A stretch of 64,000 nucleotides of DNA, taken from Deltaproteobacteria bacterium (lineage in GTDB: Bacteria; Desulfobacterota; Syntrophobacteria; BM002). The position numbers and the translations under genes were made by a program. Below are positions 7,681 to 62,494 of the stretch, piece after piece. The stretch covers positions 155-64,154 of the forward strand of contig JAJDNL010000239.1 of NCBI GenBank assembly GCA_022340745.1, read 5' to 3'. The notes under the pieces were generated by a model that saw only the letters and a list, made by a program, of their open reading frames with translations, was not told the origin of the DNA and made no database searches. Positions within the stretch are counted from its first letter, which is position 1; every line of letters begins with the position of its first letter.

Positions 7681-7780
7681 AAGCACAAAATCTGAAGGTG
7701 TCGGGTGTCAGGTGTCAGGTGTCAGTGAGGAAAACAAAAAAACTGAAACCTGAACACTGAAACCTGAAACCTTCTCTACA
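7681..7780. repeat. heptamer-built hairpin element (family D): (GTGTCAG)3 arm / A-rich loop / (CTGAAAC)n arm
   Basis: AAGCACAAAATCTGAAGGTGTCGGGTGTCAGGTGTCAGGTGTCAG...AACTGAAACCTGAACACTGAAACCTGAAACC; arms are imperfect reverse complements. Ends 5 bp before the dxr GTG start. Confidence 0.7.
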
Positions 7781-17344: not shown

Positions 17345-18622
17345 GTGACAAAGGTAGCTACTATGAGAATGACGATTACCGAGAAAATTCTTGCGGCCCA
17401 CGCCGGATTGGACAGAGTAGTACCGGGAGAACTCATCGAAGTCAGTGTTGACTTCTCCCTCGCCAATGATATTACCGCGCCCATTGCCATTGAGCAGTTC
17501 CGCCAGGCGGGTGCTGAAAAGCTCTATGACGTGGCGAGGGTTGCTCTTGTCCCCGACCATTTTGTACCCAACAAGGACATTGAATCTGCCGCCCAGTGCC
17601 AGCTTTTGCGTGAGTTTGCCGCCGAGCATGAATTACCCCATTTTTTTGAGGTGGGTCGCATGGGCATCGAACATGCACTCCTGCCTGAACAGGGACTGGT
17701 CCTCCCCGGAGATGTGGTAGTGGGAGCCGACAGCCACACGTGTACCTACGGGGGACTCGGAGCCTTTGCCACCGGCGTTGGCAGTACGGATCTTGCTGCG
17801 GTTATGATAACCGGCCGGACCTGGTTCCGCGTGCCGGCCTCCATCAAATTTATCTTCCAGGGGGATCTTCGTCCCTGGGTTACCGGCAAGGATCTGATTC
17901 TTTATACCATTGGCCAGATTGGCGTTGATGGTGCCCGTTACCGGGCCATGGAGTTCACCGGCCCTGTCATTGCTCAACTCTCCATGGATCAACGGTTGAC
18001 CATGGCCAACATGGCCATTGAAGCAGGGGCAAAAAACGGCATCATCGCACCTGACGAGTGCACCCGGGCGTTTGTGGAGGAAAGGGCCCAGCGGCCCTAC
18101 CAATTTTACCAAAGCGACGCTGATGCTGAGTATGAGCAGGTCATTACCTACAATGTTAGTGAGATCGAACCACAAGTGGCCCTGCCACCTTCCCCAGCGA
18201 ACAGCCAACCGGTTTCATCCTTGGATGAGATTCCCATTGACCAGGTAGTGATCGGCTCCTGTACCAATGGCCGCATTGAGGATTTGAGATTGGCTGCCCA
18301 GTTGCTGAAAAGCCGCAAGGTGGCACCTAGGGTACGCTGCCTCATCATTCCTGCCACCCAGGCCATTTACCGACAGGCCATGGATGAGGGTCTGTTCACA
18401 ATTTTTCTCAAGGCGGAGGCTGCTATAAGCACCCCGACCTGTGGTCCCTGCCTGGGTGGTTACATGGGCATTCTCGCTGCTGGGGAGAGGGCTGTGGCCA
18501 CCACCAACAGGAATTTCGTGGGGCGAATGGGTCATCCGGAAAGTGAAGTCTATCTGGCCTCTCCTGCCGTGGCAGCAGCCTCGGCCGTGCTGGGCCGCAT
18601 CGCCAGCCCAGAGGAACTGTGA
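17345..18622 (+). CDS. leuC: 3-isopropylmalate dehydratase large subunit (archaeal-type, about 420 aa)
   Basis: Aconitase-family catalytic domain with a Cys ligand triad (SHTC...CTNG...CGPC); followed by leuD and leuB. Confidence 0.9.
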   Translation: MTKVATMRMTITEKILAAHAGLDRVVPGELIEVSVDFSLANDITAPIAIEQFRQAGAEKLYDVARVALVPDHFVPNKDIESAAQCQLLREFAAEHELPHFFEVGRMGIEHALLPEQGLVLPGDVVVGADSHTCTYGGLGAFATGVGSTDLAAVMITGRTWFRVPASIKFIFQGDLRPWVTGKDLILYTIGQIGVDGARYRAMEFTGPVIAQLSMDQRLTMANMAIEAGAKNGIIAPDECTRAFVEERAQRPYQFYQSDADAEYEQVITYNVSEIEPQVALPPSPANSQPVSSLDEIPIDQVVIGSCTNGRIEDLRLAAQLLKSRKVAPRVRCLIIPATQAIYRQAMDEGLFTIFLKAEAAISTPTCGPCLGGYMGILAAGERAVATTNRNFVGRMGHPESEVYLASPAVAAASAVLGRIASPEEL

Positions 18623-18630
18623 AGATTATT

Positions 18631-18930
18631 CACCACAAAGAACACGAAGGGCACAAAGGGGAATACAGAGCCTGTCCGATAACTGCTTTCCCCTCCCCTA
18701 GCGGGAGGGGATAACGGGGAGGGGGGGGGAATATTAACCCCCTGAAGTTTCATTGCTTTTTCACCCCCACCCTAATTCTCCCCCGTCGAGGGGGAGAGAA
18801 TTATGAGGTTGTCGGACACCCTTTACTGAGAGATTAGAAATCGCTATTAACTTGAACTCTGGTCGAGATAATTGCCCTATTTCAACTTTAGTCCTCAATA
18901 TTCTTTGTGTACTTTGTGACCTTTGTGGTC
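18631..18930. mobile_element. MITE-C-like insertion (about 300 bp) between leuC and leuD with imperfect 28-bp TIRs
   Basis: CACCACAAAGAACACGAAGGGCACAAAGG at the left versus CTTTGTGTACTTTGTGACCTTTGTGGTC at the right (reverse-complement related). Interior has two GC-rich palindromes and a G9 homopolymer at 18721-18729. A related terminus pair sits at 45585-45710 between porA and porD. Confidence 0.55.
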
Positions 18931-18968
18931 CAATCTTGATGTGATTGCAACCTAGGAGATGAAGATAC

Positions 18969-19473: not shown

Positions 19474-20538
19474 ATGTCTAATACTTATCGGATTGGCGTG
19501 ATTCCGGGCGATGGCACCGGTCCTGAGGTGGTAGCGGAAGGCCTCAAGGCCCTCGCAGCCGTTGCCGAACGTAATGGCTTCTCCTACGAACTGGTTTCCT
19601 ATGACATTGGCGGGGAGCGCTATCTGAAAACTGGTGAAACCCTGCCTAAATCAGTGCTCAATGAACTGCAGGAAGTGCACGCCATTTACTTGGGTGCCAT
19701 CGGTCACCCTGAGGTTCAGCCCGGGATTCTGGAACAGGGTATCTTGTTAACAGTCCGGTTTGCCCTGGACCAGTACATAAATCTACGCCCGGTCGTCCTC
19801 TATCCTGGTGTCTGGACACCGCTGCGGGATAAGAATCCTGAAGATATCGATTGTGTGGTGGTTAGAGAGAATACCGAAGGTCTCTATGTTGGCAGTGGTG
19901 GTTTTTTGAGAAAGGGTACTCCGGATGAGGTTGCCATTCAGGAATCGGTGAATACGCGCAGAGGCGTGGAGCGCTGTGTCCGCTATGCTTTTGAGCTTTG
20001 CCAGCGCCAGGGACGTAAGAAGGTAACGCTTTGCGGTAAGACCAATGTATTGACCTACGCCTTCGACCTGTGGGAGCGGACCTTCAATGAGGTAGGCCAG
20101 GAATACAAAAACATCGAAACGGATTATGCCCACGTGGATGCCATCTGTATGTGGATGGTGAAAAATCCAGAATGGTTCGACGTTATTGTGACCGACAATA
20201 TGTTCGGTGACATTATTACCGATCTGGGGGCAATGATTCAGGGTGGGATGGGCATAGCAGCCGGGGGCAATATAAACCCACACGGTGTTTCCATGTTCGA
20301 GCCCATTGGAGGTTCTGCCCCTAAATATACCGGGAAAAGTGTAATCAATCCTCTGGCAGCCGTTGCTGCCTTGGCCATGCTCCTGGATAATCTGGGCGAA
20401 GAAGATGCTGGTCGCCAGGTGGAGGACGCCATCAAGCGTGTAGTGAAAGATGACTTGAAAAGCATGGACGCCGGTCATATGGGGTATACTACCCAGGAGG
20501 TTGGTAATTTGGTGGTTAGATATATTTCAGAGAGCTAG
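19474..20538 (+). CDS. leuB: 3-isopropylmalate dehydrogenase
   Basis: 354 aa; [14 protein letters not shown]-terminus and NMFGDIITD motif of isocitrate/isopropylmalate dehydrogenases. Confidence 0.95.
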
Positions 20539-20562: not shown

Positions 20563-21582
20563 ATGAAAAGCGAATATCATGTAGCGGTAGCCGGTGCCAC
20601 GGGCGCGGTTGGCAATGAGATGATCCGGATTCTTGAAGAGCAGGAGTTCCCGGTAGCTTCCCTCAAACTCCTGGCCTCTTCCCGCTCCGTGGGAAAGACT
20701 CTAGATTTTCGCGGTGAAAGCCTGCACGTTGAAGAGCTCCATGAGGATTCTTTCGAGGGCGTAGATATTGCTCTGTTCTCGGCAGGTGCTGGGCCCAGCA
20801 GGGAGTTCGCGCCGGCAGCGGCCGAGTCTGGCTGTGTGGTAATCGACAATTCCAGCGGTTGGCGGATGGATCCGGAGGTGCCGTTGGTGGTACCTGAGGT
20901 CAACCCTCACGCTGTCGCCGACTATCGTAACAAAGGCATCATCGCCAACCCGAACTGTTCTACCATTCAGATGGTGGTCGTGCTTAAGCCTATCTATGAC
21001 GCCGTGGGAATTGAGCGAGTGGTAGTGTCAACCTACCAGGCGGTCTCGGGTACCGGAAAAAACGCCATGGATGAATTGATGGAACAGACAAGAAATCTCT
21101 TGACTTTCCAAGAAGTTACACCCGAGGTTTATCCTCACCGAATCGCCTTTAACTGCTTTCCTCATATCGGCAGCTTCCTGGAAAATGGCTATACCGAAGA
21201 AGAGATGAAAATGGTCCATGAGACCCATAAGATCATGGAGGATCCCACCATTAGGATAAGCGCTACCACCGTGCGCATTCCGGTCTTCTATGGCCACTCG
21301 GAAGCGGTAAATATTCAGACCGGACGCAAGCTATCTGCTAAAGAAGCACGGGTTCTGCTTTTTCAGGCTCCCGGGGTGAGGGTGATGGACAATCCGGATG
21401 AGCGAATCTATCCAATGCCATCGGAAGCAGCCGGCATCAACGACACCCTGGTGGGAAGGATTCGAGAAGACATCTCTAACGAAAATGGGCTCGACCTTTG
21501 GATCGTAGCCGATAATATCCGCAAGGGTGCCGCCCTCAACACCGTGCAGATCGCAGAACTCTTGGTGAGAGAATGCCTATAA
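20563..21582 (+). CDS. asd: aspartate-semialdehyde dehydrogenase
   Basis: 339 aa; VAVAGATGAVG NAD(P) N-terminus, active-site NCSTI Cys motif. Confidence 0.95.
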   Translation: MKSEYHVAVAGATGAVGNEMIRILEEQEFPVASLKLLASSRSVGKTLDFRGESLHVEELHEDSFEGVDIALFSAGAGPSREFAPAAAESGCVVIDNSSGWRMDPEVPLVVPEVNPHAVADYRNKGIIANPNCSTIQMVVVLKPIYDAVGIERVVVSTYQAVSGTGKNAMDELMEQTRNLLTFQEVTPEVYPHRIAFNCFPHIGSFLENGYTEEEMKMVHETHKIMEDPTIRISATTVRIPVFYGHSEAVNIQTGRKLSAKEARVLLFQAPGVRVMDNPDERIYPMPSEAAGINDTLVGRIREDISNENGLDLWIVADNIRKGAALNTVQIAELLVRECL

Positions 21583-21831
21583 TGTTGCCCTGCAATCCGG
21601 CGGGAATTGTTATCTCAGAGGACCATGAGGGCGGGGATAAGCCCCGCCCCTTCACATGCAGCAAAGCGCAGAGCGCCAGGCGCATAGCGTTTGGTAAAGA
21701 ACGAACAGTGGCCGGTAAAACGATTATGCACTGATTCTTTAAAACGTTCAGCGTTTACCACTTAGCCTTCACTCATTTTTTTCTCTATGCTCTATGCGCT
21801 ATGCGCTATGCGATATTAGGCATTTCCTTCC

Positions 21832-24003: not shown

Positions 24004-25596
24004 TTGCTTATTATTCTGCTGGTCAGTATCGCCTTGAACCATTGCGGACTTTCTGGAATCAACAGTTGGGACAGCCAGGTGCGCGGTTCGGACCAGATGC
24101 CGGACAGTATCCGACACCTGGTGCAGAAGCTCGCCACAAAAAGTAAGAAAGTCGAAAACCACACCGGTCTGGCCATTACCTATCCTTATGATGGAGCTGT
24201 TTTTCCTCCTGAGATTGCAGCACCTGTTATCGTATGGGAAGACGCCAATGCGGCTTCGAACCACTGGCTTATCGTGGTCGAATTCAGCAGCCAACGCAGT
24301 CCGATTTACGCTATTGCTGACGAGCAGGGCTGGGCACCGGACCAATCGATCTGGGAGGCCGTCAAAGCCAACTCAGTCCGCGCTCCTGCGAAAATAACCG
24401 TTTACGGTTTTGACCTCCAACATTCCGACACCATCGTCGCCAAGAACAGCATCCGCATTTCCACTTCAAAAGATCGTGTTGATGCCTCAATATTTTACCG
24501 ACAGGTCCAGCTCCCATTTAAAGTAGGGAAGAAGAATTTTAAAAAGCTAAAGTGGCGCCTTGGTGATATCTCTTCATATGAAAAACCGCCAGTTGTCATG
24601 GAAAATCTTCCTGTTTGTGCAAGCTGTCATCTTTTTTCAAAAGACGGCACTTTAATCAGCATGGAGATGAACTACAAGGAGGACAGTGGCGCTCATTTTA
24701 TCACGTCGGTCAGGGAGAATATTGAGTTGTCTGCAGAGGATTTCATGAGCTGGAATGATTTCCCCAGGCCGGAACTTCTGCCAAAAACCAGGGGCCTGTT
24801 TGCCAAGATATCGCCCAGCGGAAAATACATGGTGAGTACGGTACATGAGATATCCTATGCCGCCCTGACCAATAATTTTGCTTTCTGCCAGCTCTTCTTC
24901 CCAACCTACGGCGTGCTGGCCTGGTATTCGGTTGACAACAGGGAGTTTCATCTCCTTGCCGGAGCTGATGATTATGACTTTGTCCAGACTGACCCCAGCT
25001 GGAGCTGGGATGAAAAGTATATTGTCTTTGCCAGGTCAACCACCAAAAACGACTACCATGAAGACATCACAAACATCCACACCCATATCGAGGATGCCGA
25101 CATTCAGGAACTGAATGAAAAATTTCCCATCCAGTTTAATCTTTACAGGATGCCGTTCAATCAAGGAAAAGGCGGGATACCAGAGCCCTTAAAAGGTGCA
25201 AGTCACAACGGCATGAGCAACTATTTTCCAAGATATTCGCCGGACGGCAAGTGGATTGTCTTTACCCGCAGCAGGACCGGCATCATGCTCCAACCGGATA
25301 GCGAACTCTTTATTATACCGGCAGCCGGAGGCGAGGCTCGAAGGATGCGTTGCAACCGTGAGCTTTTCAATTCCTGGCACAGCTTTTCGCCCAATGGGAA
25401 ATGGATGCTTTTCAGTTCCAAGGCCAATACTCCTTTTACCGAAATCTTTCTGACCCACATTGATGCCAACGGGGTTGACAGTCCCCCGGTATGTTTATCC
25501 CGTTTCAGCGATGACCACTATGCCGCCAATGTGCCGGAGTTTGTCAATATTGGGCCCGGGGCGATCAAGAAGATAAAGATTTCGGCTCAGCGCTGA
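24004..25596 (+). CDS. exported CXXCH-motif protein with C-terminal TolB-like (PD40) beta-propeller
   Basis: Single C-A-S-C-H haem-c binding motif mid-protein (PVCASCHLF). C-terminal repeats YFPRYSPDGKWIVF / SFSPNGKWMLFSS are PD40/TolB-like. Hydrophobic N-terminus. Start uncertain: the ORF opens at 23863 but its first 140 nt are occupied by a dispersed hairpin repeat, so 24004 (TTG) is my best guess. Confidence 0.5.
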   Translation: MLIILLVSIALNHCGLSGINSWDSQVRGSDQMPDSIRHLVQKLATKSKKVENHTGLAITYPYDGAVFPPEIAAPVIVWEDANAASNHWLIVVEFSSQRSPIYAIADEQGWAPDQSIWEAVKANSVRAPAKITVYGFDLQHSDTIVAKNSIRISTSKDRVDASIFYRQVQLPFKVGKKNFKKLKWRLGDISSYEKPPVVMENLPVCASCHLFSKDGTLISMEMNYKEDSGAHFITSVRENIELSAEDFMSWNDFPRPELLPKTRGLFAKISPSGKYMVSTVHEISYAALTNNFAFCQLFFPTYGVLAWYSVDNREFHLLAGADDYDFVQTDPSWSWDEKYIVFARSTTKNDYHEDITNIHTHIEDADIQELNEKFPIQFNLYRMPFNQGKGGIPEPLKGASHNGMSNYFPRYSPDGKWIVFTRSRTGIMLQPDSELFIIPAAGGEARRMRCNRELFNSWHSFSPNGKWMLFSSKANTPFTEIFLTHIDANGVDSPPVCLSRFSDDHYAANVPEFVNIGPGAIKKIKISAQR

Positions 25597-25610
25597 GCGC
25601 AAAGCGTGAA

Positions 25611-25697
25611 GTAAACAGTAAACGGTGAACGGTAAACCGATCATGCGCTGGCTCCGCGACTGTTTACCGTTTACCATTTACCGTTCTTTCTTTTTTT
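25611..25697 (+). terminator. rho-independent terminator-like hairpin built from GTAAAC(A/G/C) heptamers
   Basis: GTAAACAGTAAACGGTGAACGGTAAACC ... GTTTACCGTTTACCATTTACCGTT inverted arms followed by a TTCTTTCTTTTTTT tract; 15 nt after the stop of the CXXCH/PD40 gene. Confidence 0.55.
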
Positions 25698-25786
25698 CGC
25701 TATGCGCCATGCGCTATGCTCTATGCGATCTGACCTGGCCCTGAGGACCAGGTCTGCTACTTTGAATCAAAGACGGGAGTTAATCT

Positions 25787-30601: not shown

Positions 30602-30675
30602 GAGGTTTCAGTGTTCAGGTTTCAGCTTTTATTGCTGTATTTCCTGACACCTGACACCCGACACCTGAAACCTCC
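30602..30675. repeat. family D heptamer hairpin element copy, inverted orientation
   Basis: GAGGTTTCAGTGTTCAGGTTTCAG...CCTGACACCTGACACCCGACACCTGAAACC. Together with a partial copy at 30058-30100 it brackets the FKBP-like gene. Confidence 0.6.
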
Positions 30676-34339: not shown

Positions 34340-34424
34340 GAATGTCGGGTGTCAGGTGTCAGGTGTCAGGGAAGAAAAACAAAACAACTGAAACCTGAAC
34401 ACTGAAACCTGAAACCTCTTCTAC
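34340..34424. repeat. family D heptamer hairpin element copy
   Basis: GTCGGGTGTCAGGTGTCAGGTGTCAGGGAAGAAAAACAAAACAACTGAAACCTGAACACTGAAACCTGAAACC; immediately upstream (5' side) of the ATP-grasp gene on the other strand. Confidence 0.7.
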
Positions 34425-37707: not shown

Positions 37708-37786
37708 AAGCACAAAATCTCTGGGTATCAGGTGTCGGGTGTCAGGGAAGAAAAACAAAACAACTGAAACCTGAAACCTCCTCTAC
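37708..37786. repeat. family D heptamer hairpin element copy
   Basis: AAGCACAAAATCTCTGGGTATCAGGTGTCGGGTGTCAGGGAAGAAAAACAAAACAACTGAAACCTGAAACC. Confidence 0.7.
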
Positions 37787-38041
37787 CGGCACAGCCATTG
37801 AACGCTGACTTGGCCCCAAGGTCTAAGTTTTCATCTTGAAAATGCTCCAGCGAGCGCATTCCCCGTAGCGACACGACTTGAGCGACACGACCTGAGCTCG
37901 TCGACAGGTCTCGTCGACAGGTCTTGCTGCAGGGAGCTTCAATAAATAGAGGAGCTCCCGACAAGGTAATTCTGTGTCTTGACGATTGTTTATGCTAAAA
38001 TGTTGCGGTCTTTTCTACTGATCTAGTCTTGGAGGTAATGT

Positions 38042-44159: not shown

Positions 44160-44318
44160 AATCCCAGTGCCCTTTCCTATTAAGCTCTTTGTTGCTTGCT
44201 ACAATGACAGTGCAGGAAGCGTAACAGAGAAATTAAGGGATTCGGGAATTCAGGGATTGAGGAATTGGAATCCCCCAATCCCTAAATTCCTAAATTCCCT
44301 AATTCGCAATTAATGTCA

Positions 44319-45515: not shown

Positions 45516-45730
45516 AAGAAGTCACCACACCATCTGGTCAGATTTCTCCCGTACCTGGCCATGGAAAGTCAAATTAACCACAAAGAGCACAAAGCACACA
45601 AAGGATCAAGATATATACGAGATGAGAAAAATATCAGGCATGACCGGACATCTAATATATCACATTTCACATCTGTTATTTCTTGGTGATCTTCGTGTCC
45701 TTCGTGGTGAAAATGTATCTCTGTTATTCT

Positions 45731-47333: not shown

Positions 47334-47550
47334 AAATGCTATAGCGAGCGCGTCCTCCGTAGCGACTCGACCTGAGCGACACGACCTGAGCTCGTCGACA
47401 GGTCTCGTCGACAAGTCTTGCTGCGGGGTTAGCGAGCGAATTACAATAAAACGGTACGTCGCAAAGTGCGACACCCGAGGACGCCCAGAAGGACGCCTAT
47501 ATCCGCGGTCGCAGTCCGCCGTAGGCGGAATTCATGAAACATCCGGGCTA
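47315..47550. mobile_element. MITE-A copy (236 bp)
   Basis: TAGCCCGGATGTTTCATGAA ... TTCATGAAACATCCGGGCTA termini; same core blocks. The left TIR supplies the last codons and TGA stop of the upstream ORF 46920-47333. Confidence 0.75.
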
Positions 47551-47824: not shown

Positions 47825-48211
47825 CCACTGTTCACCTCTCTTTCACCATAAAAAAAGCCCTTTTCACAGGGCCCAGCCGCAACTTTCTTTGGCATGAATC
47901 GTTGTAAGGAACTGAACCTCTTCATGGTCTCAGAAGTTATCTACCAAAGCAATCGTGCTGCTGCAGTCCCCTATCAACTTTTTATCTAACATATCCTCTT
48001 GGCAGTGGCAACCCCGCACCCCTCAGGAGTTACTCCATTCCTTTGCTCACTTGGCAGATGATAGGTTGAACCGCAGAATATCGAAGTGAAAAACATTGTC
48101 TTATTTCTTTCAAAAACTTCTGCCGTTCGAAATTCCTCGTTCGATATTCACAAACGACTATTTACTTCACTCCGTATTATAGCGACCCAAGGAAGGCTGA
48201 TTGAATATCTA

Positions 48212-48440
48212 CCACAGAGGCACAGAGATCACGGAGGAGGTTGTTTTTTCCCTGGCCGGGAGACGACGGCCAGGGAAAAGAGCCTCCGCCTTCGGCGAAA
48301 GCTCCTTAACTGGTTCCAACCGATGACATCAAACCACCGGGTTACTTGATCGTGCCCGCAGGGCTGCGATCTTTTGCCCGATCGCCGTCTCCCGATCGGG
48401 CAAAAAAAATATTCCCTCTGTGCTCTCCGTGTCTCTGTGG
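48212..48440. mobile_element. MITE-B copy 1 (229 bp), TIR CCACAGAGGCACAGAG
   Basis: Termini CCACAGAGGCACAGAG...CTCTGTGCTCTCCGTGTCTCTGTGG. Internal hairpins (CCCTGGCCGGGAGACGACGGCCAGGG; TTTTGCCCGATCGCCGTCTCCCGATCGGGCAAAA). About 90 percent identical to the reverse complement of copy 2. Confidence 0.75.
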
Positions 48441-48561
48441 TTAGTAAATAAAAGTGGATATCGAAATCTAGTATTGATAGCATGCGCAGCTGAGGGAATA
48501 GGCGTTATTCAAAATTGAAAACAGGCTGAATCCCGCTTTAATCATAACTGAAAGTGCGGCA

Positions 48562-51759: not shown

Positions 51760-51864
51760 ACAGCATGGCTTACTCAAAGCTGAGAATCACTTTACCAAAA
51801 CGCCCATGCCATTAACTCCGCATACCATGGATACTAGATTTCGATATGCACTTTTATTTACTAA

Positions 51865-52094
51865 CCACAGAGACACGGAGAGCACAGAGGGAACCATTTC
51901 TCTTGCCCGATCGGGAGACGGCGATCGGGCAAGAGATCGCAGCCCTGCGGGCACGATCTAGTAACCGGGTGGTTCATGCCTACGGTTGGATCTAGGCTAA
52001 AGAGCTTTCGCCGCAGGCGGAGGCTCTTTTCCCTGGCCGTCGTCTCCCGGCCAGGGAAAAAACAACATCCTCCGTGTCCTCTGTGCCTCTGTGG
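51865..52094. mobile_element. MITE-B copy 2 (230 bp), inverted relative to copy 1
   Basis: CCACAGAGACACGGAGAGCACAGAG...CCTCTGTGCCTCTGTGG; same internal hairpins in reverse orientation. Confidence 0.75.
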
Positions 52095-52209
52095 TAAATT
52101 TTCACTCAGGCTTCATTAGGCCGCAACCACACGGAGCAGAGTAAATAGTCGTTTGCAAAATCCGATTAGCAGAAAAGATTCAAACATTAGGGGATTGGGG
52201 GAGCAAAAT

Positions 52210-61215: not shown

Positions 61216-61600
61216 AGTTGATCATCTGCTAAATACCAGACTCGATTGTTATATGGACTCAGCCCTAAAGAGTTATGTAAATTTTTTAGGAGGCATCAAT
61301 CGCTCTGAGTTTCAGGTAATTTCTGGATTAGGTTGTGGCTAACCCAAGACTTATTATCTACATTGCATAGCAGTTTGTCGAAATTTTATATAGCATACTT
61401 TAATCCACCGTGTACCGCTTGAGAACCAGATACCATATGGTGGAGCAACCAAACCATGCTCCAGCGCTCCTGGAAATTCCACCAAGACTAAGCTGCCAGC
61501 CGCTGACCAATTCTCGAGGGGTTAACGTCAGGAGCAGTAAAGAATCCGGGCCCATCGAAGATCCCGCTGTGCGTAAAAGGAGCCCAGCACTTTACGGTTT

Positions 61601-61678
61601 GTCCTGCGGACTCCCACCCTACGGGTGGGTTCCCGGTTTGTCCTGCGGACTCCCACCCTACGGGTGGGTTCCCAGTTT
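61601..61678. repeat. two tandem 39-bp hairpin units GTCCTGCGGACTCCCACCCTACGGGTGGGTTCCC(G/A)GTTT
   Basis: Each unit contains a CCCACCC-TACG-GGTGGG stem-loop. Related single units at 57683-57722, 37663-37700, 5128-5160 and, reverse-complemented, at 23936-23974. Confidence 0.7.
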
Positions 61679-61699
61679 GTCCTGCGGACCAGGTTTCCT

Positions 61700-61768: not shown

Positions 61769-62494
61769 CTACTTCTCGTCCTCGTCTTTGGCTTTCTTGG
61801 TCCTACCTTTTTTCTTTTTGGCAGTTTTTGTAGCTTTCTCTGACTCAGGCTCTGAGGCCTCTTCAGCTGCCGGGGCTTCGGCTTTCGCCTTTTTCGCGGG
61901 TTTACGCTTCTTCTTTTTCTCTTCGACAGCTTCCTCTGCTACCGCCTTTTCAGCTGCCGGTGCTTCGGCTTTCGCCTTTTTCGCGGGCTTACGCTTCTTC
62001 TTTTTCTGCTCGACAGCTTCCTCTGCTACCGCCTCTTCAGTTGCAGCTTCCTCCTCTACTATCTCCTCAACAGCCGGAGGTGCAGCCTCTACAGCTTTGC
62101 GGGGTTTGCGTTTCCTCTTCTTTTTCTTCTTTGCAGCTTCCCCGGTCATCAGCTCGATGAGACTCAATGGGGCACCATCACCAACCCGAAAACCTACTCT
62201 TACCATACGAGTGTAGCCGCCACTGCGGGCCTGATAACGCTGGGCCAGATCAGTAAATAATTTGTGAACCACCGCCTTATCTCGTATGACTTGGAGTGCC
62301 TGGCGTCTGGCGTGCAGATCTCCCCTTTTTCCCAAGGTTATCATCCAATCAGCCCAGCGCCGAAGCTCCTTGGCCTTGGCATGGGTGGTGTATATACGTT
62401 CGTGATCCAGCAGCGAAGTCACCATGTTGCGAAACATGGCCAACCGATGGCTGGAAGAGCGATTCAGCTTTCTCCCACTCTTGCCGTGTCGCAT
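61769..62494 (-). CDS. rplQ: 50S ribosomal protein L17 with long Lys/Ala/Glu-rich C-terminal extension
   Basis: N-terminal 120 aa are canonical L17 ([24 protein letters not shown]...). The C-terminal 120 aa are a low-complexity [19 protein letters not shown] repeat. rpoA-rplQ synteny. Confidence 0.9.
61864..62037. repeat. 87-bp direct tandem duplication inside the rplQ C-terminal extension (2 copies, about 95 percent identical)
   Basis: Copy 1 at 61864-61950 and copy 2 at 61951-62037 differ at about 4 positions. Encodes the repeated AVAEEAVE(Q/E)[19 protein letters not shown](K/E) 29-aa unit. Confidence 0.8.

Follow-up and report, generated by a model that had tools for sequence, protein, structure and literature searches.

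A nested foldback repeat between leuC and leuD and the distribution of its tandem-unit arms

The large and small subunits of 3-isopropylmalate dehydratase are encoded by leuC and leuD, and the leu operon of Deltaproteobacteria bacterium raises the question of why these two genes lie 346 bp apart and of what the DNA between them is. The locus is on contig JAJDNL010000239.1 (assembly GCA_022340745.1), of which a stretch of 64,000 nucleotides, hereafter the window, was analysed. A previous sequence-only reading, made without database searches, had described the segment as a structured insertion that splits two normally adjacent or overlapping genes. Gene borders assigned with NCBIfam profiles give the same spacer, as 18623-18968 is exactly the interval between leuC and leuD, and relatives whose LeuD is 60-74% identical mostly have between -10 and about 50 bp here, which confirms both that the two genes usually adjoin and that the spacer content is extra DNA compared to the usual junction. 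We show here that this DNA contains a nested non-coding foldback repeat, the leu element, in which a pair of tandem-unit arms encloses an 11-bp inverted repeat, which in turn encloses twin hairpin modules. We lean towards the view that the operon tolerates the leu element as one copy from a foldback family that is selfish or neutral, and that would be copied via a hairpin or cruciform and resized by slippage of its units.

Anatomy of the leuC-leuD spacer

The leu element measures 298 bp (18632-18929) and, together with its flanks, is organised as follows:

17345-18622, plus strand: leuC, 3-isopropylmalate dehydratase large subunit, upstream flank (TIGR02083, 691.9 bits)
18632-18658, plus strand: left arm, ACC followed by CACAAAG aa CACGAAG gg CACAAAG, three 9-bp units
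18673-18683, plus strand: left half of the second-layer inverted repeat, TGTCCGATAAC, 11 nt, 91% complementary
18689-18729, minus strand: C-rich hairpin module 1, perfect hairpin 18689-18711 and G-rich flank 18716-18729
18765-18797, plus strand: C-rich hairpin module 2, C-rich flank CACCCCCACCC at 18765-18775 and perfect hairpin 18777-18797
18808-18818, plus strand: right half of the second-layer inverted repeat, GTTGTCGGACA, partner of 18673-18683
18819-18902: right interior, unpaired and AT-rich, about 84 nt, without a counterpart on the left side
18903-18929, plus strand: right arm, CTTTGTG ta CTTTGTG ac CTTTGTG GT
18954-18959, plus strand: Shine-Dalgarno-like AGGAGA of leuD, found by reading, outside the element, in a region that is similar in the related contigs L249 and L251
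18969-19463, plus strand: leuD, small subunit, downstream flank (TIGR02084, 239 bits; TIGR02087, 208 bits)

The stop codon TGA of leuC occupies 18620-18622, and the operon continues downstream of leuD with leuB (19474-20538) and asd (20563-21582). Each arm is 27 nt in length and consists of three CACRAAGnn units in tandem; the two arms are 81% complementary, with 244 nt between them, and the TTC that flanks the arms of the family is present at 18629-18631, directly before the left arm. The sequence-only reading had bounded the segment by imperfect inverted repeats of 28 bp, of which the inverted ends stand and the length is corrected to the 27 nt measured. The two-unit pattern CACRAAGNNCACRAAG has 8 matches in the window, compared to 0.03 expected from shuffles, and all of them fall either in the leu spacer or in 45579-45706, the two places at which related termini had already been named.

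Inside the arms, the second-layer inverted repeat encloses modules 1 and 2, which are mutually inverted copies, each composed of a C-rich tract and a perfect C-rich hairpin. The two hairpins are the GC-rich perfect palindromes reported earlier; both are real, and they are the sole such hairpins in the 64 kb. A sequence similar to the left half of the second layer, ctgtccgagaac, is found inside a CACGAAG element of a distant metagenome-assembled genome (MAG), L188. For the right interior, nothing similar was found in the loci fetched for comparison apart from an independent assembly of the same spacer (L001), and a 30-mer of the interior has zero exact matches in the metagenome collection.

As RNA, the spacer is predicted to fold with -133.9 kcal/mol (z = -6.1), the arms forming the closing stem. 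Simple scans of the spacer detected neither promoter-like nor terminator-like sites. A search of the whole window against Rfam gave nothing at gathering score, and the hits in the spacer up to E = 10 are at chance level, the best of them (E = 0.11) being far below threshold. Two further readings of the arms were rejected. The inverted pairing and the occurrence in both orientations speak against arms that encode His-Glu or Arg-rich peptides, and the likeness of TTCACCACA to a DnaA box (7/9) falls to 6/9 for the majority G variant and is not shared by the internal units.

The run of nine G that had attracted attention as a classic slipped-strand site is present at 18721-18729. As the sole homopolymer of at least 8 nt in the window, with G5 in its place in the homologous modules of L250 and L188, so that the run length has changed in evolution, it might be taken for a contingency switch that controls leuD by slipped-strand mispairing. 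We give this explanation hardly any credence: the run is non-coding and has no promoter-like site nearby by simple scans, it merely complements the C-rich tract of the reversed hairpin module, for which the other copy has CACCCCCACCC, and the same G9 is found in the independent metagenome assembly L001.

Distribution of the arms and turnover of the spacer

In total, the window contains four elements of the arm superfamily, namely the leu element and the following three:

45577-45708: second CACRAAG element, 132 bp, between porD-like and porA-like genes
48211-48441: third element, with the CACRGAG arm variant
51864-52095: fourth element, CACRGAG arm variant, matching the third at about 90% identity when inverted

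The second element lies in a minus-strand operon for a 2-oxoacid:ferredoxin oxidoreductase, so that the related copy said to split porA from porD is genuine; its predicted RNA fold has z = -4.6. The claim of dispersed copies thus holds for the por copy, and the sequence-only reading overlooked the elements at 48211-48441 and 51864-52095 as well as 31 short-repeat arrays. These two elements carry CTCYGTG units, which differ at one position from the CTTYGTG of the leu element. A broader regular expression covering the arm superfamily has 16 matches in the window, compared to a mean of 0.06 in shuffles.

Outside the window, the three-unit pattern occurs in at least 120 stretches of viral contigs, and the pattern with an ACCAC prefix in at least 120 stretches of one-genome-per-species contigs, where by our own estimate about 0.1 chance matches of the prefixed pattern would be expected in 596 Gb. 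Among the matches listed, the hosts comprise Desulfobacterota, Acidobacteriota, Planctomycetota, Verrucomicrobiota, Chloroflexota, Cyanobacteria, Alpha- and Gammaproteobacteria, and also Nitrospirae, Binatia, Methylomirabilota, Thermotogae and Methanothrix. Isolates that carry elements judged typical by eye are Calothrix NIES-4105, Endozoicomonas elysicola, Bowmanella, Thioalkalivibrio, Salinisphaera and Desulfobacter vibrioformis. Reference plasmids gave matches at chance level only, and reference phages gave none. Taken together with the por copy and the 48-kb and 52-kb elements, these genome and viral matches mean that the segment is not just an unusually long operon spacer without relatives elsewhere, the outcome that the sequence-only reading had allowed for.

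The three-unit pattern was also seen in contigs labelled giant-virus MAGs in IMG/VR (L028, L038, L091, L096, L099, L108 and L115). In the high-GC viral contig L052 (1640-2280 and 7160-7340), CACGAAG triples stand beside four CAGAAGG units and ACGGCA-type arrays, some of the arrays being apparently in frame within long open reading frames (ORFs), with peptides such as HHEGHEGHEG.

The family consensus is t.ACCACGAAG-rr-CACGAAG-rr-CACGAAG, that is, a conserved heptamer, a purine-rich spacer of 2 nt and the terminus ACCAC. With three mismatches allowed, the fetched loci yielded 117 convergent pairs (56-599 bp) in addition to 257 solo arms, and neighbouring arms are convergent in 89 of 113 cases. 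The heptamer types CACGAAG, CACAAAG and CACAGAG may combine within one element. Most interiors are unrelated between elements, and some subfamilies share interior sequence. For the 56 pairs with co-directional flanking genes, the upstream stop codon tends to be nearer (median 33 nt, many at 3-30 nt) than the next start codon (median 67 nt). Several left arms abut or overlap a stop codon, as in TGAACCAC.

The best named relatives of LeuD are from MAGs of Syntrophobacterales and Syntrophobacteria. Within the clade that is 86-95% identical in LeuD, the leuC-leuD spacers range from 43 to 468 bp and differ in content:

L242: spacer 43 bp, one CTTCGTGGT unit only
L251: spacer 166 bp, same left arm and same "aa" and "gg" spacers, interior different
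L250: spacer 171 bp, other arrays
L245-L247: spacer 195 bp, inverted 7-nt arrays
Window: spacer 346 bp, the leu element
L249: spacer 468 bp, CACAGAG left arm and CTTTGTG right arm, interior of many other arrays

At this junction, the number of units is three in the window, two in L251 and one in L242. The right arms of L249 and L251 here are similar to that of the window, and we read them as orthologous. The independent ENA metagenome assembly L001 has an identical spacer including G9, and its sole difference is CGA in place of the TGA stop codon of leuC, by which LeuC gains the tail RRLFTTKNTKGTKGNTEPVR, translated from the left arm (L001, 1446-1508). Turnover extends to the next spacer of the operon, leuD-leuB, which is 10 bp in the window and in L250 and is occupied by three different array elements in L242, in L245/L247 and in L249. 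Moreover, parts of the leu element recur in other settings. In L250 its twin hairpin module, reversed and lacking CACRAAG arms, lies between leuB and asd, and a single module with the adjoining "ctgtccga.aac" lies inside the CACGAAG element of the distant L188; the interior of the por element resembles both elements of L251. Even the close relatives L245 and L247 differ in the unit numbers of their arrays.

Origin and possible function of the element

Three properties lead us to favour a selfish or neutral foldback family: the arms are constrained as DNA, mirror-symmetrically and in a heptamer-specific manner, the nested contents are exchangeable, and the spacers turn over among close relatives. 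Copies of such a family would be gained, lost, resized by unit slippage and re-filled within intergenic spacers. The copying process would work on DNA, with the hairpin or cruciform form as its substrate, and would leave no target-site duplication and need no element-encoded protein. The leu element would then be a tolerated passenger of the operon, probably transcribed with leuC and leuD, and its very stable hairpin would separate the two cistrons in the joint transcript, in which case leuD must start from its own ribosome-binding site. The element could serve as a processing site or as a barrier to RNA decay, similar to repetitive extragenic palindrome (REP) sequences in other operons. An effect on the LeuC:LeuD ratio, if any, would plausibly be exerted via the stable hairpin in the joint transcript, by analogy with REP sequences and with the operon-borne element Chunjie; a role specific to leucine regulation is not indicated. 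As close relatives have very different spacers at this junction, the leu element is probably dispensable for leucine synthesis and matters little there.

Several points weigh against this explanation. The same heptamer is kept across phyla and domains, which would be easier to understand with a conserved trans-acting factor and could mean a host function instead of selfish spread. At the leuC-leuD junction the arms persist in the window, L249 and L251 despite replacement of the interior, for which selection on the arms could be responsible. The 48-kb and 52-kb copies are alike for about 70 nt past both arms (48151-48518 and 51787-52155), hence at least that duplication was not bounded by the arms. 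In addition, the family statistics come from loci chosen by the arm pattern itself, the joint transcription with leuC and leuD, though probable, is one that we infer, and our searches identified neither a mobilising enzyme nor a copying mechanism.

The inverted ends and dispersed copies could be taken to imply a classical MITE (miniature inverted-repeat transposable element), namely a deletion derivative of an insertion sequence (IS), moved by cut-and-paste by a DDE transposase that recognises the triple-repeat ends. Such an origin agrees with the terminal inverted repeats (the 27-nt arms, with 109 unique pairs in the fetched loci), the small size, the lack of an ORF, the many dispersed copies and the subfamilies that share interiors at different loci, and the MITE Chunjie of Geobacter uraniireducens is an operon precedent as far as it is outlined in PMC10969869 and PMC3184786. 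Nevertheless, we consider it quite improbable. A search for direct repeats of 3-5 bp at offsets of 0-10 in about 107-109 unique pairs gave no target-site duplication, the 0-5 matches corresponding to chance, and reading of both window CACRAAG copies revealed none; the 7-bp direct repeat TGAAGAT (18620 and 18960) was discarded as a target duplication, as it lies 30 nt beyond the right arm and is likely a chance occurrence. In the fetched loci, transposases are neither between nor beside the arms: the 120 ORFs adjoining arrays comprise housekeeping genes and one IS66 transposase, neither transposases nor HUH enzymes are enriched among them, and no autonomous IS with the same termini was found, long convergent pairs enclosing ordinary genes. 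Similarly, no transposase family is among the 25 most frequent Pfam families of the window ORFs (n = 54). Recurring arm pairs of 1627 bp and 1807 bp in viral contigs were considered as autonomous elements and rejected, as the two that were read by eye are related phage-like contigs, with solo arms on either side of genes that resemble phage structural genes and with no transposase. The interiors are mostly unrelated, different heptamer types are mixed in one element, and the 48-kb/52-kb duplication reaches past the arms. Terminal identity over 27 nt across phyla is, to our knowledge, unlike known IS families. A selected RNA element that adjusts the LeuC:LeuD ratio from within the leuCD transcript, for instance by processing, stabilisation or attenuation, likewise stands only a slim chance. 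Both operon copies are predicted to be very stable (z = -6.1 and -4.6) and both sit between subunit genes of heteromeric enzymes, and a stabilising effect on upstream mRNA is known for REP sequences in operons. However, apart from the lack of any Rfam match above chance level, the arms do not show the pair-preserving covariation of a selected stem: dinucleotides of the inner spacers match between the arms no more often than in permuted pairs, and only the outermost spacer pair shows a weak excess of agreement. Nor is there an asymmetry relative to transcription, since mismatches oriented by the flanking genes are G.U-compatible in 39 cases versus A.C in 36, and solo arms between co-directional genes have no preference for the sense orientation (39 sense versus 32 antisense). 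The one correlation between arms is in the heptamer variant (A or G at position 4), which a genome-specific preference could explain. Moreover, the leuC-leuD junctions of related contigs hold unrelated sequence or next to none, and elements also occur between convergent and between divergent genes.

The main rival, which is compatible with a selfish or neutral family and does not exclude it, is that a DNA-binding protein, for instance a nucleoid-associated protein or global regulator, binds the arms cooperatively, the paired arrays serving to organise or regulate local DNA. In support of this, conservation is strict for the heptamer and, apart from a purine bias, absent from the 2-nt spacers; both arms are constrained as mirror images, whichever way transcription runs; an identical heptamer is found across phyla; and the arms at the leuC-leuD junction are retained while interiors change. 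Paired triple repeats of Geobacter metallireducens have also been read as putative regulator sites (PMC2700814). On balance we regard it as unlikely, given that no candidate protein is known, that the neighbouring genes share no functional theme, that the 9-bp phase is off the helical repeat, and that L242, the closest relative, keeps one unit at this junction. Binding sites would also leave unexplained the appearance of arrays in new spacers between close relatives and the duplication of nested elements.

Known repeat families and the other arrays of the window

The closest described counterparts are repeats of G. metallireducens (Aklujkar et al. 2009, PMC2700814). Class 2 there consists of three tandem TCTCCGTS[Y] units, paired on opposite strands at variable distance; class 3 consists of heptamers, with one pair between proB and proA; and class 4 comprises C-rich hairpin sites, CCCTCACCC ... 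CCCTCTCCC-loop-GGGAGAGGG. Sites of classes 1-3 were proposed as putative sites of a global regulator, with IHF/HU guessed as the binder (PMC2700814). The leu element resembles class 2 in having three tandem units of about 9 nt, the reverse complement of TCTCCGTS[Y] being CACGGAGA when the printed consensus is compared, and in the opposite-strand pairs at variable distance in intergenic DNA, including operon spacers. It differs in using CACRAAG, whereas the 48-kb and 52-kb elements of the window carry the CACRGAG unit, and the two variants are linked by mixed CACGAAG/CACAGAG elements. The description of class 2 covers one genome, and spread across phyla, turnover and nesting are not reported there. 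By eye, the interior modules are similar to class 4, as both have a C-rich tract followed by a perfect C-rich hairpin; they differ in sequence details and in that the leu modules are two inverted copies nested in another element.

Intergenic heptamer arrays have been described as short tandemly repeated repetitive (STRR) sequences in cyanobacteria, and also in Xanthomonas and Beggiatoaceae (PMC4692102 and PMC4679880, and Mrazek 2007 as cited there). They include GGGAATC arrays of Xanthomonas in 70-75 convergent pairs (Rehm et al. 2015) and TAACTGA arrays of Beggiatoaceae, reported together with a summary of the known excess of heptamer repeats (MacGregor 2015); for Nostoc, a 2022 preprint attributes regulatory effects to heptamer repeats and found no binding partner. 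The leu arms share with these arrays the 3-5 short units, the strongly intergenic location and the length variation between relatives. However, they fix the heptamer and vary the 2-nt spacer between units, and therefore were not generated by simple slippage.

Compared to REP, BIME and REPIN sequences, which go with RAYT (Y1) transposases, the family is likewise intergenic and hairpin-forming, occurs as inverted doublets and as singlets without target duplication, and is often found in operons. The arm is, however, a row of tandem 9-mers beginning with ACCAC and not a palindrome, and it lacks the GTAG or CGTC head. Each REP family is confined to a lineage, in contrast to the very wide spread of the CACRAAG motif. 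Eukaryotic foldback (FB) transposons also have terminal inverted repeats composed of short tandem repeats, with a middle that is variable or absent, but they are far larger, and no homology is implied. As recounted in PMC10969869 and PMC3184786, Chunjie (Chen et al. 2008) is a hairpin-forming element of about 180-235 bp in an operon that remains unbroken, and its predicted RNA stability of -98 to -130 kcal/mol is similar to that of the leu element; it differs, according to the same accounts, in its 21-bp terminal inverted repeats and 9-bp direct repeats, as no duplications are found at CACRAAG elements. Full-text literature searches with the arm 16-mers and heptamers combined with repeat terms retrieved no relevant paper, and searches for prokaryotic foldback elements or MITEs with tandem-repeat ends, or for convergent heptamer pairs since 2016, retrieved nothing relevant. 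The kind of repeat is thus known but unexplained, and earlier accounts do not appear to describe how it spreads across phyla, turns over and nests.

The window itself is rich in such repeats. Tandem Repeats Finder detected 31 arrays with a period of 6-9 and at least 2.7 copies, compared to 0-2 in twenty dinucleotide shuffles; 24 of them have a period of 7, and by a crude ORF map 27 lie in intergenic DNA, which makes up 16% of the window. The arrays of period 7 and 8 consist of identical head-to-tail units in intergenic DNA, with unit numbers that vary, as between L245 and L247. Inverted pairs and nested sets are common among the arrays, and several composites are present at more than one place.

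Nearly every sizeable spacer here, including those between subunit genes of heteromeric enzymes, is filled with inverted arrays of short repeats, and one arm type is common to distant phyla and across domains. Arrays of this kind are known from scattered reports on Calothrix, Xanthomonas, Beggiatoaceae and Geobacter, without explanation, and a well-defined, widespread member with clear gain and loss offers a handle for finding the copier or the binder. We put forward only tentatively, and with more doubt than confidence, that the (CACRAAGnn)x3 arms, found in many phyla, Methanothrix and viral contigs, define a very widespread and essentially undescribed foldback class without target duplication or a transposase of its own. 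If true, such a class would call for copying machinery that has so far gone unrecognised, or for a conserved host factor able to read a signal with a period of 7+2 nt, and the same account might hold for the long-puzzling excess of intergenic heptamer arrays. In practical terms, the arrays yield spurious small ORFs and extended gene calls, offer repeats for inversions, and can lengthen proteins upon loss of a stop codon, as for LeuC of L001.

Several individual arrays deserve description. The porA-porB spacer (44227-44298) carries an inverted pair of 8-nt arrays (GAGGAATT / AATTCCTA), and together with the por element this means that two successive inter-subunit spacers of the por operon carry array elements. 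A composite of (GGTGTCA)n, an A-rich linker and (CTGAAAC)n is present in four copies in both orientations (7696-7772, 30603-30673, 34343-34417 and 37740-37780). Another nested element, in which GCGCAnAGC/GCTATGCGC arrays on the outside enclose GGTAAAC/GTTTACC arrays, is found in the window at 21660-21816 and 25590-25730, as well as in L247 (4750-4890), in the ilvB-ilvN spacer of L245 and in L249 (4405-4530); the spacers that it occupies differ among relatives, namely asd-cbiQ, ilvB-ilvN and leuB-asd. At 37867-37924 and 47361-47418 there are two copies of a palindromic unit of about 60-75 bp, in which a pair of 14-nt repeats (AGCGACACGACCTG) precedes a pair of 13-nt inverted repeats.

The regions 48151-48518 and 51787-52155, which contain the third and fourth elements, constitute an inverted duplication of about 370 bp that is 85-94% identical. 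The 3.3 kb between the two copies harbour genes for an enoyl-CoA hydratase, a beta-eliminating lyase and an S-adenosylmethionine (SAM) hydroxide adenosyltransferase, and the duplicates are a possible substrate for inversion. Finally, the window has longer tandem repeats at 61595-61689 (39 bp x 2.4) and 61857-62044 (87 bp x 2.2), the 87-bp repeat lying inside a minus-strand ORF (61769-62494).

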